DNA from: Anaerohalosphaeraceae bacterium
GTDB lineage: Bacteria; Planctomycetota; Phycisphaerae; Sedimentisphaerales; Anaerohalosphaeraceae
Reading direction: 5' to 3'
DNA: 18,520 bases
NCBI GenBank assembly: GCA_050309605.1
Contig: JBNRMN010000048.1
Span: 1-18,520 of the forward strand
The position numbers were made by a program, and so were the translations under genes. Under the pieces are notes generated by a model. That model was not told the origin of the DNA and made no database searches. It saw nothing but the letters and a program-made list of their open reading frames with translations. Each line of letters begins with the position of its first letter. Positions within the stretch are counted from its first letter, which is position 1. Positions 1,104-16,327 of the stretch are shown piece after piece.

Positions 1104-3545
1104 TTACTTTCGCCGCTGGCTTCGACCGGTTTTACGGGCGGTTTTTTTTCGGGTTTTCGGCGGCTCAATGGCGATCTCAATGAGGTCCTGTGCCTTTTCG
1201 ACAAAGACCATCTTCAGTCCGGATTTGGCTTCACGCGGCACATCGACCAAATCCTTCTCGTTACGTTTGGGCAGGACGACCGTTTTGATGCCGGCCTGTT
1301 TGGCGGCCAGAATTTTTTCCTTCAGCCCCCCCACCGGCAACACCAGCCCTTTCAGCGTCATCTCTCCGGTCATCGCCACATCCGGTCGAGCCGAACGATG
1401 GGTCAGCAGCGACACCAGCGACGTAAACATCGTAATGCCCGCACTGGGACCGTCCTTGGGCACCGCCCCGGCCGGAACGTGAACATGAAAATCATTCTTA
1501 ACGAACACCTCCCCGTCAATATTCAAAGTCGCCGCGTTGGCCTTGACATTGGAAAACGCCGCCTGGGCGCTTTCCTTCATCACCTCGCCGATCTGCCCGG
1601 TCAATAAAAGCTGACCCTTGCCGGGCATCATCGCCGATTCGACAAACAGAATCTCCCCGCCGACCGGCGTATAAGCCAACCCCGTTACCACACCCGGCAC
1701 AGCCGTTCGCAATGCCAGTTCGGATTCGAATTTGTGCGGGCCGAGAATGGACGCAAGATCCTTGACCCCAATCGTCATTCGACGTCGCTTTTTCTCGGCG
1801 ATCTGCGTGGCCGCATACCGGCAAATCGTCCCGATGGTGCGCTCAAGGTTGCGAACGCCCGCCTCATGGGTATAACGCTGAATCACCTCAATCAACGCCT
1901 CATCGCGAACCGTCAGTTGTGTTTTTTTCAGGCCGTTTTCTTTCATCTGTCGATCGACCAGATACTTCCGCGCAATATGCAGTTTTTCAGTCTGAGTATA
2001 ACCGGGCAGATGCAGAATCTCCATTCGATCCATCAGGGCCGGCGGAATCGGTTCGGTATAATTGGCCGTACCGATAAACATCACATGCGACAAGTCGAAC
2101 GGCTGCTCAAGATAGTGGTCGGTAAAACTGTTGTTCTGCTCCGGATCGAGCACCTCCAGCAGGGCCGAGGCCGGGTCGCCGCGAAAATCCTGCCCGATCT
2201 TATCCAGCTCATCGAGCATAAACACCGGATTTTTCGATTCGGATTTTCGCAGTTCCTGCAGGATGCGCCCCGGCAAGGCGCCGATATAGGTGCGTCGATG
2301 GCCGCGAATGTCGGCCTCATCGCGAATGCCGCCCAGCGAGATGCGCACAAATTTGCGCCCCATCGCACGGGCAATCGAACGACCCAGACTGGTCTTGCCA
2401 ACCCCCGGCGGACCGACAAAACACAGGATCGGACTTTTGCCGTGCGGATTGAGTTTGCGTACCGCAAGAAACTCAAGGATCCGCCGTTTGACCTTGTCCA
2501 GACCATAGTGATCGCGATTGAGAATCCGTCGGGCGCGGGCAATATCAATCCGATCCGCGGTGGCTTTGGCCCAAGGCAGTTCACACACCCAGTCCAGATA
2601 CGTGCGAAGGACACTGTACTCAGGCGAGGCGGGCGAAATCTTGCTCAGCCGATCCAGCTCGCGCAGCGCTTCGGCCTCGACAGCCCTGGGCATTTTGGCG
2701 GCTTTGATCTTGGCGTGCAGTTCTTTGGTCTCCTCGGTTCGCCTATCATCCTGCCCCAGCTCAGCCTGAATCGCCTTGAGTTCTTCCTGAAGAAAATACT
2801 CGCGCTGGCTTTTATCAATGGATTCACGCACCTGCCCCTGAATTTTATGACTCAGTTCCAATACTTCGAGCTGATTGGCCAGTGCGACGGAAATTTTTTC
2901 AAGCCGTCGATGGGTATCCAGCTCCTCCAGCAATTCCTGCTTTTCCTCTATCGGAATATTGAGTGTGGCCGCAAGAAAGTCGGCCAGCGCTGACGGCTCC
3001 TGGATATTTTCCAGCAGCATCGAGGCCTCTTCGGGCATATTGGGACTCAGTGCGACAACCCGATTGGCGGTATTGCGCACACCCATCACCAGGGCCTGCA
3101 ATTGTTTGGTGCGACGTGTGCGGGTCTTGAGCATGTTGACACGAGCCTTAAGATAAGGCTCCGAAGCAACATAGTCCACTATCTCAAATCGCGCCATCCC
3201 GTGGACAATCATATTGATCGATCCGTGCGGCATTTTGATGACTTTCAGGACCGACGCGGCCGTCCCGATGCGGTACAGATCATTTTTTGTCGGGTCTTCA
3301 ATGTCTGGATTTTTTTGGGCAACAAGCCCGAACACTGTTTCTTGTGGTTCAATATCTAAAACAAGGCGTTTGCTCCGTTCACGCCCGATGGCCAACGGCA
3401 TCACCGTCCCCGGAAAAGCCACCGCACTTCGAATGGGCAAAATGCCCATCACATCAGGGACCTTCAATTCTATGTCCGATGTCTCGCCCCTCTGAACCGA
3501 GGATGACGTGTCGGAATCCAATTCAATCAGTTCAATCAATCGCAT
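1104..3545 (-). CDS. lon: ATP-dependent protease La (Lon)
   Basis: 813 aa. LON N-domain (ILPIRSAVAFPG), Walker A GPPGVGKTS, Walker B MLDELDK, RGHRRTYIGALPG, catalytic Ser motif PKDGPSAG and Lys motif GGLKEK. Confidence 0.97.
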   Translation of the reverse strand: MRLIELIELDSDTSSSVQRGETSDIELKVPDVMGILPIRSAVAFPGTVMPLAIGRERSKRLVLDIEPQETVFGLVAQKNPDIEDPTKNDLYRIGTAASVLKVIKMPHGSINMIVHGMARFEIVDYVASEPYLKARVNMLKTRTRRTKQLQALVMGVRNTANRVVALSPNMPEEASMLLENIQEPSALADFLAATLNIPIEEKQELLEELDTHRRLEKISVALANQLEVLELSHKIQGQVRESIDKSQREYFLQEELKAIQAELGQDDRRTEETKELHAKIKAAKMPRAVEAEALRELDRLSKISPASPEYSVLRTYLDWVCELPWAKATADRIDIARARRILNRDHYGLDKVKRRILEFLAVRKLNPHGKSPILCFVGPPGVGKTSLGRSIARAMGRKFVRISLGGIRDEADIRGHRRTYIGALPGRILQELRKSESKNPVFMLDELDKIGQDFRGDPASALLEVLDPEQNNSFTDHYLEQPFDLSHVMFIGTANYTEPIPPALMDRMEILHLPGYTQTEKLHIARKYLVDRQMKENGLKKTQLTVRDEALIEVIQRYTHEAGVRNLERTIGTICRYAATQIAEKKRRRMTIGVKDLASILGPHKFESELALRTAVPGVVTGLAYTPVGGEILFVESAMMPGKGQLLLTGQIGEVMKESAQAAFSNVKANAATLNIDGEVFVKNDFHVHVPAGAVPKDGPSAGITMFTSLVSLLTHRSARPDVAMTGEMTLKGLVLPVGGLKEKILAAKQAGIKTVVLPKRNEKDLVDVPREAKSGLKMVFVEKAQDLIEIAIEPPKTRKKTARKTGRSQRRK

Positions 3546-3884
3546 ACGTTTCTTTTGTCAGACATAACCTATCTATATCGCTTAAATCTTGATTACATTC
3601 TCATCATACCGGAAAATGAAGGCACTGAAAAGGAAATTATATCGATAGGCCCTTGCGTGTGATTCCTTCAAAAGAAACCCGAAAAGTCCGATATAAATGC
3701 GGTTTTTCGGATTATTTGTCTTCTAACGCCTCTTTTTTCCGCGAAATAGTCAAAGCTCAAAAAGAATTATTGATTTTTGATTAATTTTATGTTAGAAATG
3801 GCATATAATGGTGATTATAATAAGAGATGGTGCCAAGCGGTGCTTTGCACTATACGAACCGTCAATATGGGTGGGATAAGGAGA

Positions 3885-4751
3885 ATGCAGCAATTTTCGA
3901 GAGATTTGATGCAACAAACCAGCTCGGGGGGCAACCTCTATGAGGCTATTCCCCGTGTGCGCGGTTCCGTGCAACCTGTTGCCAACTCCTCGACTGCGGA
4001 ACATTCATCCACTTTATTAGCCAAACGGTACGAGCTGAAGTACCGCATCCCGGAATCGACCGCTGTGGCCGTTCGAGCCTTTGTCCAAAGCTATCTGCAA
4101 ACGGACAAATACGCCCTCAAACATCCCAATCGACAATACCCGATATGCAGTCTGTATCTGGACTCGCCGCGGTTTGATTTATTTCATGAGACCATTTATG
4201 ATAAATGCAATCGGTTCAAATTGCGGATCCGGGGATACGACGACGACCCAAACAGCCCGCTTTTTTGTGAAATAAAACGCAAACTCAATCGTATCATTTA
4301 TAAAAGCCGTGCCCGCATTCATAAAGCTCAGCTTGAGCCTATTCTGAACGGTTGCTACGTACCGCGGGATTTGCCGGAGAAGGATCGAAAAGTACTCAAG
4401 CAATTTATGCATTACTGTCAATGTCTTCAGGCACGTCCGGTGGCATTGATTCGTTATATGCGCGAGGCGTACGAGAATCAGACCGACTCGAAAGTGCGCA
4501 TTACCTTTGATCGTCAATTGTATTATAAATATACCAATAACCCGGCATTTACACTCAATGGACTGGGATGGCAGCGGGTACCGATTGATTTTGTGATACT
4601 TGAAATCAAGTTCACGGCCAGCTATCCCTCGTGGCTCAAAGAGCTGGTGCGGATGTTTGATTTGAGCCGGCAGTCGATGTCCAAGTATTGCAGCTCCGTT
4701 CGGCGGTTAGTGCCTCAGGGACCTGCGATTTACAGACTTCCGAGCCGGTAA
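3885..4751 (+). CDS. VTC-domain (polyphosphate polymerase-like, CYTH/TTM superfamily) protein
   Basis: Motifs RYELKY, SLYLD, KLRIRGY, EIK, YMREAY, RITFD, ILEIK and SKY. The start is uncertain: ATG 3885 follows AAGGAG, and ATG 3909 is an alternative. The ORF-track start at 3777 runs through AT-rich DNA containing TATAAT boxes (3804-3809, 3816-3821). Confidence 0.85.
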   Translation: MQQFSRDLMQQTSSGGNLYEAIPRVRGSVQPVANSSTAEHSSTLLAKRYELKYRIPESTAVAVRAFVQSYLQTDKYALKHPNRQYPICSLYLDSPRFDLFHETIYDKCNRFKLRIRGYDDDPNSPLFCEIKRKLNRIIYKSRARIHKAQLEPILNGCYVPRDLPEKDRKVLKQFMHYCQCLQARPVALIRYMREAYENQTDSKVRITFDRQLYYKYTNNPAFTLNGLGWQRVPIDFVILEIKFTASYPSWLKELVRMFDLSRQSMSKYCSSVRRLVPQGPAIYRLPSR

Positions 4752-4774
4752 ACATGAAGGACAAGTTATAAGTT

Positions 4775-5470
4775 ATGGATACATTATGGCAGATTCTGAA
4801 TGGCAGTCCGCTTGACCAGGGGGTTGACGGATGGACGATTTTGCTTTCGCTGCTGCTGAGCTTTGTGCTCGGACAGGTGCTCGCATGGGTCTATTATTTT
4901 ACGCACAACAGCTTGTCTTATTCCAAATCTTTCGTACAATCATTGATTATCATTACAATGGCCGTGGCGCTGGTCATGGCAACTATATCGGGCAGTTTTG
5001 TGATCGCCGTCGGGTTGATGGGCGCCGTTTCACTGATTCGGTTCCGCAACATCATTAAAGACACCCGCGATATCACGTTTTTATTTTGTGCCCTGGTCAT
5101 CGGAATGGCCTGCGGCTCGCAGCGTTACGCCATTGCCGTACTCGGCACGCTGGGGTTGTGTCTGGTTCTGGTTTATTTACATATTGCGGATTTTGGTATG
5201 CACCATTCTTATAATGCCTTTTTGCGTTTCAGTTTCGACGGAACGATCGAACCGAATCATCCGCTTCTGGCGATATTGAAACGGTTTACCCGGACGTTCA
5301 CACTGATTTCGTCCAACTCCTCGGCGCCGGAAGGTGAGAATATGGACTATGCGTACCAGCTTTCCCTTCGGACGGCGCGGAACAATGAGCAACTGCTCTC
5401 CGAAATACGTAAAATCGAAGGGGTGCATAATGTCAGCTTGACAATGCAGGAACAACTGTTGGAGATGTAA
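4775..5470 (+). CDS. DUF4956-family (MgtC/SapB-like) inner membrane protein with a C-terminal soluble ACT-like domain
   Basis: 231 aa, about 4-5 hydrophobic segments, signature GLMGAVSLIRFRNIIKDTRD and GMACG. Lies directly after a VTC gene, the usual context for this family. Confidence 0.85.
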   Translation: MDTLWQILNGSPLDQGVDGWTILLSLLLSFVLGQVLAWVYYFTHNSLSYSKSFVQSLIIITMAVALVMATISGSFVIAVGLMGAVSLIRFRNIIKDTRDITFLFCALVIGMACGSQRYAIAVLGTLGLCLVLVYLHIADFGMHHSYNAFLRFSFDGTIEPNHPLLAILKRFTRTFTLISSNSSAPEGENMDYAYQLSLRTARNNEQLLSEIRKIEGVHNVSLTMQEQLLEM

Positions 5471-5487
5471 GGAGAGACAGTCCTGAG

Positions 5488-6633
5488 ATGACACCGAAAA
5501 GACAAGGAAAGTTGTTTGGCGGGATGCTGCCTGTAGTGGTCTGGCTGTCCGCGGTTGCAGCGGTGGTTTTTTTGTATGCGCGGCGTCATCAGACATTCGC
5601 CTTGACCGGCCTGGCCATGGCGCCTTCGCAGACCTTATCTGCGGTGGACAACGGCGTTGTTCGGCACATTCCGGTATCGCTGTTTGATCCTGTTCAGCGG
5701 GGGGACCTGCTGGCCATCGTCGAATTGGGTTCGCCCCCTGAAAACGAATATCTAAGGGCAGTCAACGAAGCCCGTAAAAACACGATGCTGACCGAGCTGG
5801 ATCGGCTCAGAGCCGAACTGACCGCCGTCGAACAGCAGCTTCGTTATGACCTCGATGTGGATACCAAAGGCCAGATGCTTCGCTATGGACAGCTTGTGCT
5901 GGATGTGGAAAATGCCCATCTGGACCTGCTCAAGATTCGCACCGAACTGGAAATGGACAGAGGCCTTCTGGCCGGGCTGGAACTGGAAAAAAACGCTGTC
6001 CAGGAGTTGTTGGAAAAACAGGCCGTCCATCCGTATGAAGCCCGACAGGCCGAGCTGGAATATGAGGCCCTGGCGCGAAAAGTGGCCGCGACGGAAATAC
6101 TCGAAGCCCAGGCGCAGAACAGTGTGGCCGTCGCTCGCAGGCAGCTTGAGCAATCGACGCTCGACCGGCAGGAGGAAGCCTACATCGATACCCTGCTTGA
6201 GCCGCATCGCAAAGCCGTCGCCGTACAGGAAAAAGTGCTCGCCGAATTGTTCACCCCGACCTTTCGGATGATGCTGACCGCCAAGATCGACGGCGTGGTC
6301 AGTTCGATTCTGATTTCAGAGGGCCAGGGCGTACAGGCCGGTGATATTATTCTGACAGTCAGTCCGCCTTCGGCTGACTATATTGTCGCGTGGCTGGATC
6401 CGGTCTTTACCGGACGTCTGGAAACCAATCAAGAAGTCCAAGTTTCCAAACACAGCTTTCCGCAACAGAGCTTTCGTTCTAACGTGGCCGCGATCAGCCC
6501 GTCGGTCGAACTGATGCCCGAACAGATGTGGCCGACGCCCACAACCCCCAAATGGGGGCGGCCGATCAAGATTCCCGTCCCCGACGACATTCAGTTGGTC
6601 GGCAACGAAATCGTAGGCATTCGCGGACTGTAA
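5488..6633 (+). CDS. HlyD-family membrane fusion (periplasmic adaptor) protein
   Basis: 381 aa. N-terminal TM helix, split lipoyl half-motifs (VQRGDLL; AKIDGVVSSILISEGQGVQAGDIIL) around a long coiled coil. AAGGAG upstream. Confidence 0.85.
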   Translation: MTPKRQGKLFGGMLPVVVWLSAVAAVVFLYARRHQTFALTGLAMAPSQTLSAVDNGVVRHIPVSLFDPVQRGDLLAIVELGSPPENEYLRAVNEARKNTMLTELDRLRAELTAVEQQLRYDLDVDTKGQMLRYGQLVLDVENAHLDLLKIRTELEMDRGLLAGLELEKNAVQELLEKQAVHPYEARQAELEYEALARKVAATEILEAQAQNSVAVARRQLEQSTLDRQEEAYIDTLLEPHRKAVAVQEKVLAELFTPTFRMMLTAKIDGVVSSILISEGQGVQAGDIILTVSPPSADYIVAWLDPVFTGRLETNQEVQVSKHSFPQQSFRSNVAAISPSVELMPEQMWPTPTTPKWGRPIKIPVPDDIQLVGNEIVGIRGL

Positions 6634-8373
6634 ATGAACCTCCTCAAGATGAGTCAGAAACACAGATTCGGTATGATGAGTGCTCGACAGAAGACGCAAG
6701 TCAGAAACCAGCCATCGCAAGCCGAAGTCTGTCCGCTGTTATTCGTTCCTTTCCCACGCATGCTCCGGAATGGAGATGGCGCGGCGTCTTTTTTTCGTTG
6801 TGTGCCTTCCGTTGTCTGCCTGCTGTTGTTCGTCTTCTGCCTGGCAGGCTGCGGCTTGGACGCCCGCGAAGCGGTCGTCCAAGCCGACAAGAAGGTCTAT
6901 ACCGCCATCGAGAGCAACTGGCAGGACGACTTCGGCACCCGAACGGATGTGCGTGTCGATCCGAACGACCGCCGTTTGGCCATGGCCGAAGCCATCATTG
7001 AGGATGTACGCCACACACAAACCCTTCGTCTGGAGCAAGCGGTTCAACTGGCCGTTTTGGCCGGGCCGGAATATCGCACGGAAATTGAACGGCTGTACCT
7101 GACCGGGCTGGATCAATGGGACGCCGAGCATGTGTTCGCCCTGATCCCGCTGGCCGGCGGATCCTCGTTCTATGCGACCGACGGCACCGATGAAACCGTG
7201 TCAACCCAAGGGTTTGTCGGCATTCAGCAACTGCTGTCAACCGGTGCCGTTGCGGCCGCTGATATAACGCTCGGCTCGCTGGATGTGTTAACCGGCGACC
7301 TGCGAAGCGGTTCGTCATCGATCTTTCGGGCGGCGATCGTGCAGCCCCTGCTGCGCGGCGCGGAGCGGACCGTTGTACTGGAAACACTCACGCAGGCGCA
7401 GCAGAACACGCTGTACGCGGTGCGACATTTCAATCGTTTCCGAAAAACCTACTGCGCGTCGGTTGTCAGCGATTACTATCGCCTTTCGGAACTGGCCTTG
7501 CGAACGCAAAACACCCTGGACAACATCCGGCAACTGGAAAGTTTGGTCGAGCGGATGGAGCATCTGACCGGTGTGGCCCGCGTGGGACAATATGAACTGG
7601 AAGAGACCCAGCAGGATTTGCTTAAGGCGCGCGACGACTATCTCGATTTTCAGCGGCGCTACGCCGAAAGCCTGGATTTGTTTAAGGTGCGGCTCAACAT
7701 CCCGCCGCACATCGAATTTGAACCGTATCTCGGCGACTGGCTGATGCTTTCCGAATCGATCTTTGCCGAGAGCGGCTGGGATGAGCAGGCTGCCGTCGAG
7801 GCGGCTCTTGCCCAGCGTTTGGATTTGGCCAATATGCAGGATCAGATCGCCGACGCCCAGCGAAAAGTCCACGTCGCCGAGGACGCGCTGGGCGGGGATT
7901 TGTCGCTGATCGCCGCCGCTGCGCCGGCATCGGGCAGAACCGATTCGCAATATACGATCGGCATTGAAGGCGCTCTGCCGCTGGATCGCGTCAACGAAGC
8001 GACCCAGTATCGCCGCGCTCTGATCGCGCTGACCGCTCAGCAGCGACTGTATGACCAGCACACGCATCAGGTGGCCGCCGAAGTTCGCAAAGCCTGGCGG
8101 GATATGGCCGAAGCCAAAGAACGCTATCTGCTCCAGCGGCAGGCCCGCGATCTGGCCCGCAAACGTCTTGAGAATACCACCCGATTGCTGCACTACAGCC
8201 GAGCCAATACGCGCGATGTTCTGGATGCCCAGGAAGACCTGTACGACGCCGAAGACGATTTCATCGTCGCCCTGTCGGATTTTGCCGTTGCCCAAATGAA
8301 TTTCCTCCGCGACACGGAAACCCTCTGGATACTGCCGGACGGCACTTACGAAACCCAACTGGCATTACAGTAG
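6634..8373 (+). CDS. TolC-family outer membrane efflux channel lipoprotein
   Basis: Hydrophobic stretch with lipobox LAGC (Cys codon 6850-6852). Two OEP-like repeats (LRLEQAVQLA...QPLLRGA; ALAQRLDL...LPLDR...DVLDAQEDL). The start is either 6634 (abutting the upstream stop, TAAATG) or 6760 (gives a more normal signal peptide). Confidence 0.85.
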   Translation: MNLLKMSQKHRFGMMSARQKTQVRNQPSQAEVCPLLFVPFPRMLRNGDGAASFFRCVPSVVCLLLFVFCLAGCGLDAREAVVQADKKVYTAIESNWQDDFGTRTDVRVDPNDRRLAMAEAIIEDVRHTQTLRLEQAVQLAVLAGPEYRTEIERLYLTGLDQWDAEHVFALIPLAGGSSFYATDGTDETVSTQGFVGIQQLLSTGAVAAADITLGSLDVLTGDLRSGSSSIFRAAIVQPLLRGAERTVVLETLTQAQQNTLYAVRHFNRFRKTYCASVVSDYYRLSELALRTQNTLDNIRQLESLVERMEHLTGVARVGQYELEETQQDLLKARDDYLDFQRRYAESLDLFKVRLNIPPHIEFEPYLGDWLMLSESIFAESGWDEQAAVEAALAQRLDLANMQDQIADAQRKVHVAEDALGGDLSLIAAAAPASGRTDSQYTIGIEGALPLDRVNEATQYRRALIALTAQQRLYDQHTHQVAAEVRKAWRDMAEAKERYLLQRQARDLARKRLENTTRLLHYSRANTRDVLDAQEDLYDAEDDFIVALSDFAVAQMNFLRDTETLWILPDGTYETQLALQ

Positions 8374-8574: not shown

Positions 8575-9972
8575 ATGACAAAAAACACCTCAAACATCAT
8601 TAATGAAGACGCCATCGTGCAGACGCTGGAAAAAGCGGCGCGGCGTGATGCGGCCGCTGTGCGCGACGTCCTGGCCAAGGCCCGCCAGCTTAAGGGGCTG
8701 GACTCGGATGACATCGCCGTGCTGGCGGCGGTCAGCGATCCCGACCTGCTCAAAGCGCTTTTTGATACCGCCCGAATCGTCAAAGAAACGATCTACGGCC
8801 GACGGCTCGTGCTGTTTGCCCCTCTGTATATCTCCAATCTGTGCAGCAACGAATGCCTGTATTGCGCGTTTCGGGCCAGAAATACCGCCGTTCATCGACG
8901 CGCCCTCCGACAGGATGAAATCCGCCGTGAGGTTGACATTCTGATTCGACAGGGACACAAACGAATCCTCCTGGTCGCCGGCGAGGCGTACCCCAAAGAC
9001 GGATTTGAGTACATTCTCCGGGCCATCGAGACCATCTATGACACCCACGTCGGCCCCGGCCAGATCCGCCGGGTCAACGTCAACATCGCGCCGCTGACGC
9101 GGGATGAATTCAAACGTCTCAAGGCCGCCCAAATCGGCACGTATCAACTGTTTCAGGAAACCTACCATCGCCAGACCTATGCCCGTGTGCACGTCGCGGG
9201 AAAAAAATCGGACTACGACTGGCGCGTGACCGCGATGGATCGCGCAATGGAAGCGGGCATTGACGATGTCGGCATCGGCGTCTTATTCGGCCTGTGCGAC
9301 TGGCGGTTTGAACTGCTGGCGTTGATGCAGCATATCGCCCATCTGGAAAAACACTTCGGCGTCGGCCCGCACACCATCAGCGTGCCCCGACTGGAACCGG
9401 CGACGGGATCGGATATGGCGACCCATCCGCCCCAGCCGGTCTCGGATGTGGACTTCCGCAAGATCGTCGCCATTCTGCGCCTGGCCGTGCCGTACACCGG
9501 CATCATTATGTCCACCCGCGAAACGCCGAAGATGCGGCGGGAAACGTTTGCCCTGGGCGTCTCGCAAATCTCCGCCGGTAGCCGCACCAACCCCGGCGGC
9601 TATGCCGAGGGCGAAGACATTCTCGAAGAAGCCCAGTTTTCACTCGGCGACCATCGACCGCTTGATGAAGTCGTCGGCGATATTGCCGCATTGGGTTATA
9701 TCCCGTCATTCTGTACCGGCTGCTATCGACTGGGACGCACCGGGCAGGACTTTATGGATATGGCCAAGCCGGGATTGATCAAGGAACACTGCGATCCGAA
9801 TGCGCTTTCGACTTTTCTGGAGTATCTGCTGGATTACGGATCGGACAAGACCCGTGCCGCCGGTGAAGCACTGATCCAAAAAGCATTGACCGAGATGAAC
9901 GACAACGCCAGAGAACGCAGCACATCCATGCTCGAAAAAGTGCGCCAGGGTCGCCGCGATGTGTTTTGCTGA
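8575..9972 (+). CDS. hydG: [FeFe]-hydrogenase H-cluster radical SAM maturase HydG
   Basis: 465 aa. FAPLYISN-CSNECLYC radical SAM motif, LFQETY, GPHTISVPR, and the C-terminal Cx2Cx22C (FCTGC...EHC) that distinguishes HydG from ThiH. hydF is nearby. Confidence 0.95.
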   Translation: MTKNTSNIINEDAIVQTLEKAARRDAAAVRDVLAKARQLKGLDSDDIAVLAAVSDPDLLKALFDTARIVKETIYGRRLVLFAPLYISNLCSNECLYCAFRARNTAVHRRALRQDEIRREVDILIRQGHKRILLVAGEAYPKDGFEYILRAIETIYDTHVGPGQIRRVNVNIAPLTRDEFKRLKAAQIGTYQLFQETYHRQTYARVHVAGKKSDYDWRVTAMDRAMEAGIDDVGIGVLFGLCDWRFELLALMQHIAHLEKHFGVGPHTISVPRLEPATGSDMATHPPQPVSDVDFRKIVAILRLAVPYTGIIMSTRETPKMRRETFALGVSQISAGSRTNPGGYAEGEDILEEAQFSLGDHRPLDEVVGDIAALGYIPSFCTGCYRLGRTGQDFMDMAKPGLIKEHCDPNALSTFLEYLLDYGSDKTRAAGEALIQKALTEMNDNARERSTSMLEKVRQGRRDVFC

Positions 9973-10185: not shown

Positions 10186-11031
10186 ATGACAGACAAACTG
10201 GCGGTGTTTCAAGACAAGCAGATTCGCAGGGTTCTGCACCAGGGCGAGTGGTATTTTTCGGTCGTCGATATCATAGCCGCCCTGACGGACAGTGAAAATC
10301 CGCGTGATTACTGGTATCGGATGAAGCGGCGGGAAAAGGAATCCTCCGGGATCGAGTTGTCGACATGTTGTCGACAACTGAAGCTAACATCTTCTGATGG
10401 AAAGAGTTACAAGACAGATGCTGCCAACACAGAAGCCGCTTTTCGGATCATCCAGTCCATCCCCAGCCCCAAGGCCGAGCCGTTTAAGCGGTGGCTGGCC
10501 AAGGTCGGCTATGAACGGGTTCAGGAGATTGAAAACCCGGAACTTGCTTCACAGCGGGCAAAGGCGATTTACAAGGCCAAGGGGTATCCCGATAGCTGGA
10601 TTGAAAAACGCATCCGTTCGATTGCGATTCGGGACGAACTGACCGACGAATGGCAACAGCGAGGGATTCAGGAGGACGCCGAGTTTGCGATTTTGACGGC
10701 GGATATGGCCAAGGCCACATTCGGCCTGACCCCGTCGGAATACAAAAAGCTCAAGGGTCTGAAACGGCAAAATCTGCGCGACCACATGAACGACCTGGAA
10801 CTGATATTCTCCATACTCGGCGAGGCGGCCACGACGGAAATCACCCGCAAGAACGACGCGCAGGGCTTCCCTGAAAACCAGACCGCCGCCGTCGAAGGCG
10901 GCACCATCGCCGGCAACGCCCGCCGACAACTCGAACAAAAAACCGGCAAACCCGTCGTCTCCGGCCAAAACTATCTCGACCTGAACCCCAAAAAACAAAT
11001 CGCCGCGAAAGGCAACAGGAAGCCAAAATGA
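10186..11031 (+). CDS. Bro-N domain DNA-binding protein (phage antirepressor-like) with a DinD-like C-terminal region
   Basis: 281 aa. IRR...EWYFSVVDII...YW...QLKL...DGK...RIIQSIPSPKAEPFKRWLA is a Bro-N-family signature; KLKGLKRQNLRDHM resembles the DinD C-terminus. GGAG upstream. Confidence 0.85.
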   Translation: MTDKLAVFQDKQIRRVLHQGEWYFSVVDIIAALTDSENPRDYWYRMKRREKESSGIELSTCCRQLKLTSSDGKSYKTDAANTEAAFRIIQSIPSPKAEPFKRWLAKVGYERVQEIENPELASQRAKAIYKAKGYPDSWIEKRIRSIAIRDELTDEWQQRGIQEDAEFAILTADMAKATFGLTPSEYKKLKGLKRQNLRDHMNDLELIFSILGEAATTEITRKNDAQGFPENQTAAVEGGTIAGNARRQLEQKTGKPVVSGQNYLDLNPKKQIAAKGNRKPK

Positions 11032-11238: not shown

Positions 11239-12492
11239 ATGAAAGAATCGACACCCAAAGGAATGCGGCTGCATATCGGGTTGTTTGGGCGGCGGAATGT
11301 CGGCAAGAGCAGTTTACTGAATGCCGTTGTGCGGCAGCAGGTTTCGATTGTCTCGGCGTTTGCCGGGACGACGACGGATCCGGTCGAAAAGCCGATGGAG
11401 CTGTTGCCCATCGGGCCGGTGCTGTTTATCGATACGGCGGGCATCGACGACGAAGGCGCGCTGGGGCAGTTGCGTATCGGCAAGACGCGTAAGGCCATCG
11501 ACCGCACCGACATCGGCGTGATCGTCACCGACGGCGACTGGGGCGATTTTGAAGATCATCTGTTGGCCGAATTGACATCGCGCAGCGTCCCGGTCATCGC
11601 GGTACTGAACAAGGCCGACCTGCACAGCCCACCGACGGACTTGATCGACCGGCTAACGGCTCAACAGATACGAGTCGTCGTTGTCTCTTCAACGACGGGA
11701 ACGGGGCTGGATGCGTTTCGTGCGGCATTGCTGGCCGCGGCGCCGGCGGAATTCGTTGACAACCCGGTCATTGTCAGCGATCTGGTCGGACCGGGTGAGA
11801 CGGCGGTGCTGGTTATCCCGATTGACAAGGAAGCGCCCAAAGGCCGCATCATCCTGCCGCAGGTGCAGACCCTCCGCGACCTGCTCGACCACAACGCCCT
11901 GAGCCTGGTCGTCAAAGAAAGTGAGCTAAAGACGGCCCTGACCAATCTTAAACAGCCGCCGGCACTGGTGGTCACCGATTCGCAGGCGTTCAGAGAAGTG
12001 GCCGCCGTTGTCCCCCCGAATGTGCCAATGACCGGTTTCTCGGTGTTGTATTCGCGGTTCAAGGGCGATCTGGTCAGCCAGACGCAAGGCGCCTTTGCCG
12101 TGGATACCCTCCGTCCGGGCGATCCCGTACTTATCGCCGAGTCGTGCAGCCATCACCCTATCGAAGACGACATCGGCCGCGTCAAAATCCCCCAATGGCT
12201 CAATCAATATGTCGGCGGCCCGCTGCACTTTACCACAGTGCAGGGGCAAGACTTTCCCGACGATCTAAGCCCTTATAAACTGGTCATTCACTGCGGCGCG
12301 TGCATGTGGAATCGCCGTTTGATGCTCAACCGCATCCTTCAGTGCCGTCGTGCGGGCGTGCCGATCACCAACTACGGCTTGGTCATCGCCTACAGTCTGG
12401 GCATCTTCGAACGTGCCCTGCGGCCGTTTCCGACCGTCCACGCCCTGCTGCGTCAACGCCCCGCCGAGTACCGTCCAACCGCCGCACCCTAA
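11239..12492 (+). CDS. hydF: [FeFe]-hydrogenase H-cluster maturation GTPase HydF
   Basis: 417 aa. P-loop GRRNVGKSS, GTTTDPV, DTAG, NKAD, APKGRIILPQVQ, and FeS ligand motifs ESCSHH and HCGACM. Confidence 0.96.
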   Translation: MKESTPKGMRLHIGLFGRRNVGKSSLLNAVVRQQVSIVSAFAGTTTDPVEKPMELLPIGPVLFIDTAGIDDEGALGQLRIGKTRKAIDRTDIGVIVTDGDWGDFEDHLLAELTSRSVPVIAVLNKADLHSPPTDLIDRLTAQQIRVVVVSSTTGTGLDAFRAALLAAAPAEFVDNPVIVSDLVGPGETAVLVIPIDKEAPKGRIILPQVQTLRDLLDHNALSLVVKESELKTALTNLKQPPALVVTDSQAFREVAAVVPPNVPMTGFSVLYSRFKGDLVSQTQGAFAVDTLRPGDPVLIAESCSHHPIEDDIGRVKIPQWLNQYVGGPLHFTTVQGQDFPDDLSPYKLVIHCGACMWNRRLMLNRILQCRRAGVPITNYGLVIAYSLGIFERALRPFPTVHALLRQRPAEYRPTAAP

Positions 12493-12568: not shown

Positions 12569-13183
12569 TCAATCATTCTGTTGCTGTCGGCCGCGCTGCG
12601 GCGCTTGACGCTGCTGTCCTCTCGGCTGAGCTGTGTCCGGTCGAGGGGGACGACCGGGAATCTCATCTTCGGCTGACACGCCGGGACGCCGGCTGCGATC
12701 TTCAAGCCGTTCCTGCAACCGCTCCTGCAATTCCTGACGCCGACGCTCGGCCTGCTCGATCTGGTCTTTCATTTCTTTGTCCTTCTCGGCGATCAGCGCT
12801 TTGAGCGCTTCGACGGTTTTGGTCGCTTCTTCCGCTTCAGCAATCTTGACAATCGCCTCCAGCTTGGCAATTTCCTCGCGATGCTGTTCCATCCGACGCG
12901 CCATGGCCTGACGCACCATATCCTCCCGACCGCCGGGAATAACAGCAGCACCGCCTCGTTGTTGTGTCTGCTGGTCGTCTTCAGCAGCAGCGGCAGCGCC
13001 GCGTCCACGCTGGCCCGGCGCCGCGATGGGGCCGCGCCCCGGCAATGGTCGCACCGGGCGCTGCGGCCTCTGGACAGCGGTTTCCTCTGATGCGGCCGCC
13101 TCGTCGGAATCAGCCGCAAAGGCTGCCATCGTTACCACAATTAAACACGCACATGTCCACAATAAAATACCCTTGAGTTTCAT
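12569..13183 (-). CDS. Hypothetical exported protein (signal peptide, disordered P/R/G/Q-rich arms, central coiled coil)
   Basis: Start moved to ATG 13183 (MKLKGILLWTCACLIVVTMAAFA-AD, a Sec-type signal) with AGGAGA at 13196-13191. 204 aa. Confidence 0.75.
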   Translation of the reverse strand: MKLKGILLWTCACLIVVTMAAFAADSDEAAASEETAVQRPQRPVRPLPGRGPIAAPGQRGRGAAAAAEDDQQTQQRGGAAVIPGGREDMVRQAMARRMEQHREEIAKLEAIVKIAEAEEATKTVEALKALIAEKDKEMKDQIEQAERRRQELQERLQERLEDRSRRPGVSAEDEIPGRPPRPDTAQPRGQQRQAPQRGRQQQND

Positions 13184-13282
13184 TGGAATGTCTCCTGAAA
13201 TTATCAATAATCACTTATCCGGTTACGTCATACTTCTATAGACGTCATCGGCCTGTTCGACCTTATCAGATAATTAAAAAAA

Positions 13283-13666
13283 TTAAAACTTGCGATACAC
13301 CAACCCCTCAAACAAGGCGATGGTTTGCTCTGTCTGGTCGGTAATCGTGATGGTATAGCTTCCGATGCGTCCGCGCTGATTGTTTTCGACGGCGCGGGCG
13401 CAAAGAATGCCGCTTTCTGTCGATTTAAGGTACGAAATGTTAATATTAATAGCCACCGCCACATAGCCATGTGAATTGGCCGCGGCGGCAAACACCGCAT
13501 CGGCCAGCGTGAAGATCGCCGCGCCGTGGACAATCCCCACGCCATTGAGGTGTTCAGGCCCGATTTCCAGCCGGCCGTGAGCCGTTCCTTCGCCAATCTC
13601 AAGCAATTCAACGCCGCAATGCCGAGCAAACGCATCTTTTTCTGTAAACGCTTTGACCTTGTCCAT
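13283..13666 (-). CDS. PaaI-family hotdog-fold thioesterase
   Basis: 127 aa with HLNGVGIVHGAAIFTLADAVFAAAAN motif. Starts 21 nt downstream of clpC and is probably co-transcribed. Confidence 0.88.
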   Translation of the reverse strand: MDKVKAFTEKDAFARHCGVELLEIGEGTAHGRLEIGPEHLNGVGIVHGAAIFTLADAVFAAAANSHGYVAVAININISYLKSTESGILCARAVENNQRGRIGSYTITITDQTEQTIALFEGLVYRKF

Positions 13667-13687
13667 ACAGAGCCTTGAATCCGGATG

Positions 13688-16255
13688 TTATTTCTCACCA
13701 TCGGGCGCAGGGGTATCGTCCTGGCCGGCGGCCGAATGCACCACGACGGCCTCCCCTTCGGCCTTATCGGACGATTCAATCCCTTCAAACCGCAGATGAT
13801 CGTCATCCTGCACACCAATGCGGATAACCGCCTTGTCCTTGAATTTTCCGCGGAGCAAATCTTCCGACAGCGGATCTTCAATATACCGCTCAATGGCCCG
13901 ACGCAGCGGACGTGCGCCGAATTCGGGGTTATACCCCTTGTCAATCAGAAATTCCTTGGCAGCGCTGTCCAGATCAAGATGCAGGCCATGTTCAATCAGC
14001 CGCTTGAAGACCTTGTTCAATTCATACTCGACAATCGTTTCAAGGTCTTTGCGGGTCAGCGCACGGAAGACAATCGTCGCATCCAGACGGTTCAGAAACT
14101 CCGGACGGAAATGACGCTCCATTTCCTTGTCCAGCAGTTCTTTCATCTTTTCATAATTGGCCTGCTCGGTACGCTTGCCGAAACCGAAACCCGACTGATT
14201 GCGAATCAGATCAGCGCCGATATTACTGGTCATAATCAAGATCACGTTGCGGAAGTCCACATGCCGCCCGAACGAGTCGGTCAGCCGTCCTTCTTCCATA
14301 ATCTGAAGCAGGATGTTATACACATCGCCATGGGCCTTTTCAATCTCATCCAGCAGCAGCACCGCATACGGACGACGGCGAATGCGCTCGGTCAACTGGC
14401 CGCCTTCTTCATACCCCACATATCCGGGAGGTGCACCGACCAGACGGCTGACATTGTGCTTTTCCATATATTCGCTCATGTCAATCTGGATCATCGCGTC
14501 CGGATCGCCGAACATAAACTCCGCCAGCGCCCGCGCCAGCAGGGTCTTGCCCACGCCGCTGGGGCCGATAAAGATAAAGCTGCCCATCGGTCGATTGGGA
14601 TCTTTCAGACCGCTTCGACTGCGGCGGACCGCCTTGGCCACCGCGGTGATCGCCTCATCCTGCGAGACGACGGTTTTATGCAGCTCGGCTTCCAATTCGA
14701 GCAGTTTTTCCGCTTCTTCTTTTTCGAGCCGGGTCAACGGCACACCGGTCATCTTGCTGACCACTTCAGCGACCACCTCTTCGTTGACTTCGCCGATGAT
14801 TTCGTTGTTCTTTTCCTGCCATTGACGCTGCACCTCGGCCTTCTCGTCGAGAATCCGCTGGATGTCGTCGCGCAGCGCGGCGGCCCGCTCATAATCGGCG
14901 CTTCGCACCGCCTCGTCCTTTTCGGCCTGGAGCTTTTCCACCTTGGCCTCATACTCGGCCAGATCCGGCGGCGGCGTCATATTCTTCAGACGCACCCGCG
15001 CTCCGGCCTCGTCAATCACATCAATCGCCTTGTCCGGCAGACACCGACCGGAGATGTACCGCGTCGAAAGCTCCACCGCCGCGTGCAGCGCAATATCAGT
15101 AAAGTGCACGCGGTGATGCTGTTCGTAACGATCGCGCAATCCCTTCAAAATACGGACTGTTTCTTCCTTGCTCGGCGGCTCGACCATAATCGTCTGGAAC
15201 CGCCGTTCGAGAGCCGCATCTTTTTCGATGTATTTGCGATACTCATCGAACGTCGTCGCGCCGATGCACTGCACCTCGCCGCGCGCCAGCGCCGGTTTGA
15301 GCACGTTGGACGCATCAATCGCGCCTTCCGCGCCGCCGGCCCCGACCAGCGTATGCAGCTCATCGACAAACAAAATGACGTTGCCGGCCCGGCGCACCTC
15401 GTTGATGACCGCCTTGATTCGCTCTTCGAACTGGCCGCGATATTTCGTACCGGCCACCATCATCGCCAGATCCAGCACCACCAGCCGACGCTCTTTGAGC
15501 AGCTCCGGTACTTCGTGCGCGACGATTTTCTGGGCCATGCCCTCGACAATCGCCGTCTTACCCACGCCCGCTTCGCCCAGCAGGACGGGGTTGTTCTTGG
15601 TACGTCGGCACAAAATCTGAATCAGCCGTTCGATCTCCGTCGTGCGGCCGATGACCGGATCCAATTCGCTCTTGGCCGCCAGTTCCGTCAAATCGCGGCC
15701 GAAGCTGTCCAGCGCCGGTGTTTTACTCTTGGCGCGGGCCGCGGCTTGCTGAGCGGCCATATTCGGATTCATCTTCATCCCCATCGGCGGCTGGTACGAC
15801 GTGCCGTTGTCTTCCACGCCGGCGCCCAGCAGATTCAGCACTTCCTGGCGCACATCCTCGAGCTTGAGCCCCAGATTCATCAGCACCTGGGCCGCGATGC
15901 CTTCCGTCTCGCGCAACAGACCCAGCAGAATGTGTTCGGTGCCAACGTAATTATGATTCAGTGCCCGCGCCTCTTCAATCGCATATTCAATCACTTTCTT
16001 GGCACGCGGCGTTTGCGGCAGCTTGCCCATCGTCACCATATCCGGGCCGCTCTTGACCAGTTTTTCGATCTCCAGACGCAGTTTCTTGATATCCACATCC
16101 AGATTTTTCAGTACATTGGCGCCGACGCCGCTGCCTTCCTTGACCAGCCCCAGCAAGATGTGCTCAGTCCCGATGTATTCGTGGTTAAACCGCTGAGCCT
16201 CCTGGTTGGCAAGGGCCATCACCTTACGCGCACGGTCTGTAAAACGTTCAAACAT
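13688..16255 (-). CDS. clpC: ATP-dependent Clp protease ATP-binding subunit ClpC
   Basis: 855 aa. [10 protein letters not shown] double Clp-N domain, Walker A motifs GEAGVGKT and GPSGVGKT, short UVR-type middle domain ([18 protein letters not shown]), GFGF ClpP-binding-loop-like segment, GARPLRR. Confidence 0.95.
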
Positions 16256-16299
16256 TATTTCATCTCCACTGTGAGTTACACGTCGATCAATACAAATTC

Positions 16300-16327
16300 A
16301 TTTTAACACATCCCGCCCCGCTGTCAA
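16300..16327 (-). promoter_or_regulatory. Sigma70-type promoter of clpC (TTGACA-16-TAAAAT, extended -10)
   Basis: Minus strand: TTGACA 16327-16322, then TGt-TAAAAT 16305-16300. Confidence 0.7.

Follow-up and report, generated by a model that had tools for sequence, protein, structure and literature searches.

A VTC-DUF4956-HlyD-TolC gene cassette of Sedimentisphaerales as a candidate envelope-spanning machine for polyphosphate synthesis and export

In yeast, the VTC complex (Vtc4 with Vtc1/2/3; structures 3g3q, 7ytj and 8i6v) polymerises polyphosphate (polyP) at a membrane, and polymerisation is coupled to passage of the chain through a channel formed by small subunits. Here we describe a bacterial locus in which a gene of the same catalytic family is followed by genes for a DUF4956 membrane protein, an HlyD-type periplasmic adaptor and a TolC-like outer-membrane factor. 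The locus lies in Anaerohalosphaeraceae bacterium (NCBI GenBank assembly GCA_050309605.1), on a stretch of 18,520 bases that is the entire contig JBNRMN010000048.1 and is called the window below; the source genome is 99.7% complete. Synteny, family membership and conserved residues suggest that the four products form one envelope-spanning machine, which would make polyP in the cytoplasm and pass the chain out of the cell, a proposal that in our judgement stands evenly balanced between right and wrong. We know of no described bacterial route for placing polyP outside the cell, and extracellular polyP has reportedly been found in bacteria (Rijal et al. 2020, cited in PMC12345266).

The likeness to the yeast complex lies in the catalytic family, in tunnel residues that are conserved in the VTC protein of the window (P0001), and in the proposed coupling of polymerisation to chain passage through a membrane channel of small subunits. 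The cassette differs in lacking an SPX domain and a DUF202/Vtc1-type membrane domain, either fused or as a partner; the partner is instead a DUF4956 protein that is MgtC-like and carries an ACT-like domain, and the proposed destination is the exterior, reached through adaptor and duct, rather than the vacuole lumen. With the tripartite efflux and type I systems EmrAB-TolC, MacAB-TolC and HlyBD-TolC the cassette shares an EmrA/MacA/LipC-like adaptor with an N-terminal transmembrane (TM) helix and a TolC-fold lipoprotein duct, encoded by neighbouring genes. Unlike those systems it has no linked ABC, RND, MFS or PET transporter, in the window or in its relatives; VTC and DUF4956 stand in the inner-membrane place, and an orphan secretin is the duct in 9/74 loci. 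In concept it also resembles the synthase-dependent secretion of cellulose (Bcs), alginate, Pel and poly-N-acetylglucosamine (PNAG), with a polymerase at the cytoplasmic face, inner-membrane translocation and a dedicated outer-membrane exit, although here the polymer would be inorganic and a membrane-fusion protein with an outer-membrane factor or secretin takes the place of the TPR-porin proteins. The DUF4956 protein (P0002) shares about five helices and a C-terminal ACT-like domain with the MgtC/SapB family, from which it is set apart by scores below the curated cut-offs, by a signature of its own and by its partners, VTC and HlyD.

The closest gene neighbourhood we found in the literature is linked to pel in Streptococcus intermedius, where SIR_1594/1593/1592 encode a CotH protein, a polyP-polymerase-domain protein and a DUF4956 protein. 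The last of these has an MgtC membrane domain and an ACT domain. Strains in which its gene or that of the CotH homologue is deleted aggregate less and make less Pel, an effect reported without a mechanism (PMC12345266). This is the same pair of a VTC protein and an MgtC-type membrane protein with ACT domain, linked to a secreted CotH protein. The Gram-positive pel loci differ in that their hosts have a single membrane, with no adaptor or outer-membrane channel, and in that CotH is adjacent, whereas for the window cassette it is encoded elsewhere in the genome, in 10 copies. In a pel preprint the authors suggest that polyP may stay in the cytoplasm (bioRxiv 10.1101/2024.04.20.589940), and a review surveys the VTC domain in eukaryotes (PMC10657179). 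Literature searches on DUF4956, and on CotH together with VTC and polyphosphate, returned only the pel papers and incidental mentions, and those on polyphosphate polymerase with HlyD, or on polyphosphate export with TolC and VTC, returned no paper.

Gene order, outer-membrane channels and the link to CotH

The four genes are all on the forward strand of the window, at 3885-4751 (VTC), 4775-5470 (DUF4956), 5488-6633 (HlyD) and 6634-8373 (TolC-like), and the coordinates of these open reading frames (ORFs) agree with the gaps of 23, 17 and 0 nt on which the original prediction had built. That prediction, a trans-envelope system for polyP synthesis and export, is partly supported by our analysis, and every computational check proposed with it that was run came out in its favour. 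All four families for which hidden Markov model confirmation had been suggested (VTC, DUF4956, HlyD and OEP) were matched in Pfam.

To follow the cassette in other genomes we located loci with the DUF4956 alignment, as the HlyD alignment held no stretch conserved enough for a search, and took the best 80 of 221 DUF4956 relatives, one genome per species; their genes were called with profiles derived from the first 20 loci. In 20 fetched loci the four proteins of the cassette repeat in the same order, with identities down to about 41% for VTC and about 28% for the adaptor. Among the 80 loci VTC and DUF4956 are adjacent in 79, the 80th having no room upstream, and HlyD comes directly after them in 77 of the 78 loci with room, a secretin being interposed in the 78th. 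The order VTC-DUF4956-HlyD-TolC was found in 57 loci and in 1 more whose contig ends upstream, and VTC-DUF4956-HlyD-secretin in 9 (5 co-oriented, 4 convergent). Contigs end after HlyD in 4 loci and after DUF4956 in 2, neither channel lies within 1.5 kb of HlyD in 6, and 1 locus (L118) reads VTC-DUF4956-secretin-HlyD-TolC fragment. The gene order is thereby repeated across dozens of species, that is, more than by chance. No other gene family occurs in the flanks of more than 10/80 loci, and among 17 representatives of the flanking clusters that were scanned, which are housekeeping or unrelated genes, no ABC, RND or MFS domain was seen.

Where 1.5 kb or more of sequence is available beyond HlyD (74 loci), a TolC-like gene follows in 58, a secretin in 9, both in 1 and neither in 6. 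The secretins are genuine by domain content, as STN, Secretin_N and Secretin were found by Pfam in 8/8 tested, and none of the 14 neighbouring ORFs scanned belonged to a type II secretion system or a type IV pilus; the four secretins in convergent orientation are isolated genes. In a tree built from 75 adaptors, loci with a secretin fall into three clusters, which gives at least 3 changes, only 1 of them forced by well-supported branches. The outer-membrane partner is replaceable: it is TolC-like, an orphan secretin, or not adjacent at all. Since the adaptor is kept while the outer-membrane gene varies, the conserved core is VTC-DUF4956-HlyD. That one adaptor family occurs with two outer-membrane channels unrelated to each other would be difficult to account for if the product did not cross the outer membrane, and argues that it has to do so.

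In L118 (L118:10109-14494) the secretin between DUF4956 and HlyD carries a C-terminal TPR extension, and a 129-aa OEP fragment is left after HlyD; this locus may be a snapshot of channel replacement. In five secretin-type loci (L100:9645-10742, L104:9033-10112, L130:5763-6899, L073:12954-14087 and L115:15401-16537) the gene for a DUF3616 protein neighbours the orphan secretin or lies no more than about 2 kb away from it, and another is found near a TolC-type locus, L071.

DUF4956 was matched in 86/301 sampled Planctomycetota genomes, and outside the order Sedimentisphaerales we looked at 40 loci drawn from different families. A VTC gene lies within about 3.5 kb in 36/40, and HlyD is directly adjacent in 9/40, from 5 family codes, with HlyD_3 found by Pfam in 6/6 tested in the correct frame. 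These nine are exactly the loci that score best against the window's DUF4956 subfamily. Downstream of their adaptors there is an OEP gene in one, a CotH gene in one and nothing recognisable in the rest; in high-GC loci of other families 10/22 ORFs 3' of HlyD had no Pfam family, many of them probably being spurious frames. The four-gene order, whose conservation in Planctomycetota had been proposed for testing, is thus conserved across Sedimentisphaerales, and the VTC-DUF4956-HlyD part is also found in other families of the phylum, with a variable outer-membrane gene.

The suggested co-occurrence of the cassette with CotH-like kinases was also recovered. In the source genome CotH proteins are encoded by 10 ORFs, 1231-2199 aa long, at least 7 of them with hydrophobic, signal-peptide-like N-termini. 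In 41 related genomes, 23 of which have the VTC protein, VTC and CotH occur together in 22 and are both missing from 17; the two discordant genomes, one with VTC only and one with CotH only, are 71% and 73% complete, respectively. In the 28 high-quality genomes none is discordant (17 with both, 11 with neither). Presence and absence both occur within the genus and within four family codes, and up to 24 CotH paralogues are found per genome. With a profile of the CotH domain only, a CotH ORF is present in 28/80 loci, within 600 nt of the cassette in 20/80, and in 19/40 of the phylum-wide loci; this profile was used in place of one for the whole multi-domain protein, which gave 30/80 and possibly included LTD-only matches.

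Some relatives have a smaller second cluster, in which the gene for a CotH protein of about 700 aa has as its neighbour either a second DUF4956 gene or a VTC-like gene that is only remotely related, at 27% identity (G001:C19:41291-43956, G023:C22:58562-61089 and G007:C68:9064-12069). It looks like the classical trio without the adaptor and is not present in the window's genome.

The four proteins of the cassette

P0001 (288 aa) is a soluble protein with the triphosphate-tunnel (TTM) fold and a candidate polyP polymerase. It matches Pfam VTC (PF09359) with E 5.4e-42 over profile positions 1-234 of 235, and Pfam finds the VTC domain alone, with neither an SPX domain nor a DUF202-type membrane domain. 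Its start is supported by an AAGGAG-like site before ATG 3885 and by relatives of the same genus that align from residue 1, the first 45 or so residues being variable. A single-sequence search against the PDB was weak (E 0.063), whereas a profile of 18 VTC relatives found Vtc4 (3g3q) with E 9e-10 and, less strongly, the inactive Vtc2 with E 1.4e-5. Twelve residues (K52, R114, R116, K131, K140, R142, Y191, R193, R205, E240, K242 and K267) are invariant in the 18 relatives and S266 is nearly so, and the conserved residues line up with the KYW, RLR, ERK, KAR, YNR, RVR, LEVK and SK positions of Vtc4. The Vtc4 residues reported to be catalytic or to line the tunnel (Hothorn et al. 2009) are K200, R264, R266, K281, K294, Y359, R361, R373, E426, S457 and K458. 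Their counterparts in P0001 are K52, R114, R116, K131, K140, Y191, R193, R205, E240, S266 and K267; the Vtc4 numbers match those of chain 5iiq once shifted by 3. No VTC match other than P0001 was found in the genome. As neither PPK1 (PF02503) nor PPK2 (PF03976) was matched in this 99.7% complete assembly, it would be the only recognisable polyP synthase there. A protein with a CYTH domain, the other branch of the triphosphate-tunnel superfamily, recurs in the cassette flanks of 7/80 loci (e.g. L097:17460-18056, E 4.6e-24).

P0002 (231 aa), the candidate inner-membrane conduit, matches Pfam DUF4956 (PF16316) with E 4.8e-15 over residues 36-144 only. Its model has five helices (19-43, 51-71, 75-92, 97-114 and 118-137) followed, in residues 147-224, by a C-terminal beta-alpha-beta-beta-alpha-beta domain of ACT-like type. 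We call the protein MgtC-like on the following grounds. Pfam MgtC (PF02308) was matched below threshold in 18/18 relatives, with a best E of 1.9e-5 and 16 bits for P0002 against a cut-off of 31.4, and NCBIfam MgtC/SapB (NF007431) gave E 7.9e-9 at 35 bits, below its cut-off of 214. The C-terminal domain aligns with that of MgtC 7qa5 (Z 8.8, rmsd 2.9, 88 aligned) and with 2lqj (Z 8.3), values similar to those given by many ACT and ferredoxin-like folds. With its five helices and ACT-like domain, P0002 is MgtC-like rather than Vtc1-like.

The 18 DUF4956 relatives have a mean column identity of 73% and the family signature GLMGA-x3-IRFRN-x2-KDTRD. The basic IRFR-x3-K motif noted in the original prediction is there, at residues 88-95 of P0002, and R89, F90, R91 and K95 are common to the HlyD-linked and the unlinked subfamilies. 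By the positive-inside rule the RFR-x3-K stretch and the ACT-like domain would lie on the cytoplasmic side, like the VTC protein. The HlyD-linked subfamily has conserved residues of its own that are not found in unlinked relatives. In particular, the tail LTMQEQLLE(M/V) at residues 222-231 (window about 5438-5467) is kept in HlyD-linked proteins and absent from the unlinked DUF4956 proteins of the phylum, and this tail, which includes QEQLLE, is a candidate contact site.

P0003 (381 aa) is a membrane-fusion (periplasmic adaptor) protein of the HlyD/EmrA type with a single TM helix. Its N-terminal tail is short and basic, and it contains a lipoyl domain, a beta-barrel and a hairpin of coiled coils. 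Pfam gives HlyD_3 (E 1.2e-11), HlyD_D23 (E 6.2e-10) and Biotin_lipoyl_2, and the adaptor profile finds EmrA 4tko (E 1.9e-14), MacA 4dk0 (E 6.4e-12) and LipC 5nen (E 1.6e-11) in the PDB; against the adaptor families of NCBIfam every score of P0003 is below cut-off. As first claimed, the window itself encodes no ABC, RND or MFS pump among the 12 ORFs scanned by Pfam. The genome holds seven adaptor genes and seven OEP genes, and 6/6 of the other adaptor/duct pairs adjoin a pump of their own, four of the RND type (C3, C90, C26 and C64) and two of the MacB type (C20 and C3). The window's pair is the only one without an adjoining pump, and a search for a pump elsewhere that might pair with it gave no evident unpaired candidate in an inventory of RND and MacB-type pumps, to which MFS and PET pumps do not belong.

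The outer-membrane factor matches one repeat of Pfam OEP (PF02321, E 4.5e-15). Its model (pLDDT 83.5, pTM 0.77) is placed by Foldseek closest to E. coli TolC (1ek9, E 4.2e-15, TMt 0.76), then OprM, CmeC and CusC. The start of the gene is uncertain from the sequence. ATG 6634, which gives 579 aa, abuts the HlyD stop and yields the claimed gap of 0 nt; ATG 6760 (M43), which gives 537 aa, stands just upstream of a signal peptide and LAGC lipobox and would leave a gap of 126 nt. More distant relatives of the duct align only from about residue 40-60. Numbered from ATG 6760, the model has four long beta-strands in the first repeat (129-196) and two in the second (380-405), where E. coli TolC has two strands per repeat; possibly, the barrel is larger or extended, as far as the model goes.

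Neighbouring genes and the upstream region

The cassette is bounded as originally described, with Pfam identifying a divergent lon gene (1104-3545, reverse strand) on the left of the VTC gene and a radical-SAM/BATS gene, hydG-like (8575-9972), on the right. Beyond the latter lies hydF (11239-12492), and between the two a gene with a Bro-N domain (10186-11031, forward strand; PF02498, E 2.3e-11), which belongs to a family usually seen in mobile elements such as phages. The AT-rich region between lon and the VTC gene contains 10 promoter-like sites against 4.2 +/- 1.9 in shuffles, the best being a sigma-70-like match at 3793..3821 on the forward strand (TAGAAA-17-TATAAT, with 10/12 consensus matches only). 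A terminator scan was uninformative, with 6 sites against 6.0 in shuffles and both forward-strand sites inside coding sequence.

Further downstream, an 873-aa frame without a Pfam match (13685-16306, forward strand) runs antisense over the whole of a Clp ATPase gene (Clp_N, UVR, AAA_2 and ClpB_D2-small; 13688-16255, reverse strand) and is most likely a shadow ORF. Two reverse-strand ORFs, 12569-13207 (212 aa) and 13228-13944 (238 aa), have no Pfam family.

Proposed mechanism, alternatives and implications

In the proposed pathway the soluble, Vtc4-like VTC protein would use ATP to polymerise polyP on the cytoplasmic side of the membrane, and the nascent chain would enter an oligomer of the MgtC-like DUF4956 protein, whose conserved basic RFR-x3-K stretch is predicted to lie where helix 3 reaches the cytoplasm. 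The adaptor, which is of the HlyD/EmrA type and anchored by its one TM helix, would then link the periplasm to the TolC-like duct or, in some relatives, to the orphan secretin. Outside, the giant signal-peptide-bearing CotH proteins, which have a kinase fold, may use the polymer; as there is no ATP outside the cell, polyP could serve them as donor or substrate, and extracytoplasmic CotH proteins are likely users of polyP if it is exported. Polymerase activity, translocation via DUF4956, the contacts between the proteins, the nature of the cargo and the use of polyP by CotH are all things we infer. The most detailed version, a synthase-driven tripartite exporter in which polymerisation itself powers the threading of polyP through MgtC-like channel, HlyD and TolC or secretin, and in which the polymer is an ATP-free phosphoryl donor or substrate for up to two dozen giant CotH kinases per genome, we put forward only tentatively.

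Several points weigh against polyP export by a single machine. To our knowledge no bacterial VTC-domain protein has been characterised biochemically, and the VTC/TTM fold is found in triphosphatases too. The last two Vtc4 motifs in P0001 (E240/K242 and S266/K267) depend on a low-scoring second alignment segment. The model of P0002 is of moderate confidence (mean pLDDT 69.6, pTM 0.49); in structure searches with it only the ACT-like domain was matched and the membrane part matched no solved channel. A fused or longer VTC-DUF4956 protein was not found with the query used, which counts as weak evidence. MgtC relatives are described as regulators and not as channels in the discussion of PMC12345266. 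An outer-membrane gene is not adjacent in 6/74 loci and in most HlyD-linked loci outside the order. By Pfam no CotH gene is encoded in the window, and because related genomes are not independent, the co-occurrence with CotH is a pattern and not a statistic, in which the number of events is overstated. From two RNA libraries, nothing but short contigs, 151-200 nt long and with a likeness of at least 99%, lies on the VTC and DUF4956 genes, and the DUF4956/HlyD junction is spanned by one contig from a library that is probably DNA; these contigs are too few and too short for claiming expression or co-transcription.

An alternative is one envelope unit with a cargo other than polyP. The VTC protein, as a triphosphate-tunnel hydrolase or another nucleotide-phosphate enzyme, would then energise or regulate an MgtC-like transporter, and adaptor and duct would carry a different solute, for instance orthophosphate, an ion or a small metabolite bearing phosphate. 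Synteny backs a unit and is silent on its cargo, the DUF4956 protein is MgtC-like, and TTM folds include hydrolases, with a CYTH gene near some cassettes; MgtC has moreover been tied to phosphate and to ATP-synthase regulation (discussion section of PMC12345266). We nevertheless think such a cargo unlikely, though the idea deserves real weight, as P0001 scores as VTC and not as CYTH, retains basic tunnel residues that align with those of Vtc4, a polymerase, and has no other recognisable polyP synthase beside it in the genome. That a secretin can stand in for TolC also speaks for a polymer, since a secretin is a very wide channel and such a replacement fits a polymer better than an ion.

The outer-membrane channels and the near-perfect co-occurrence of VTC and CotH, often adjacent, could alternatively mean that the cassette secretes, anchors or activates the giant CotH proteins, with VTC and DUF4956 as accessories and polyP, if made at all, going no further than the inner membrane or periplasm; TolC and secretins are both able to carry proteins. 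This we regard as improbable. The N-termini of the CotH proteins are hydrophobic signals of the Sec type, unlike those of type I substrates, for which reason a type I-like secretion of CotH was ranked low; no ABC exporter or type II secretion assembly genes are linked, one cassette would have to serve the up to 24 paralogues, and the VTC-DUF4956-CotH trio is also known from Gram-positive bacteria, where an outer membrane is lacking. We think it less likely still that HlyD and TolC are ordinary efflux parts of a pump encoded elsewhere and that their adjacency to VTC-DUF4956 is meaningless. A weak MacB_PCD-like match (C95) and two partial ACR_tran-like matches (C3:15729 and C62:6635) exist in the genome, none of them beside an adaptor, and MFS pumps fall outside the inventory. 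Against this, HlyD follows DUF4956 in nearly every locus with room, down to the lowest adaptor identities and also in other families of the phylum, the adaptor stays constant while its outer-membrane partner changes, and all six other adaptor/duct pairs have their own pump alongside.

Taken together, our results favour one envelope-spanning unit that would synthesise polyP and release it from the cell. If this reading holds, it would give a first function to bacterial VTC-domain and DUF4956 proteins, add a new class of engine to the tripartite envelope machines, and explain how secreted CotH kinases could work without ATP. If true, the MgtC/DUF4956 superfamily would gain a transport function, and a membrane-fusion adaptor would be able to dock on a secretin, the first pairing of an efflux-type adaptor with such a channel.

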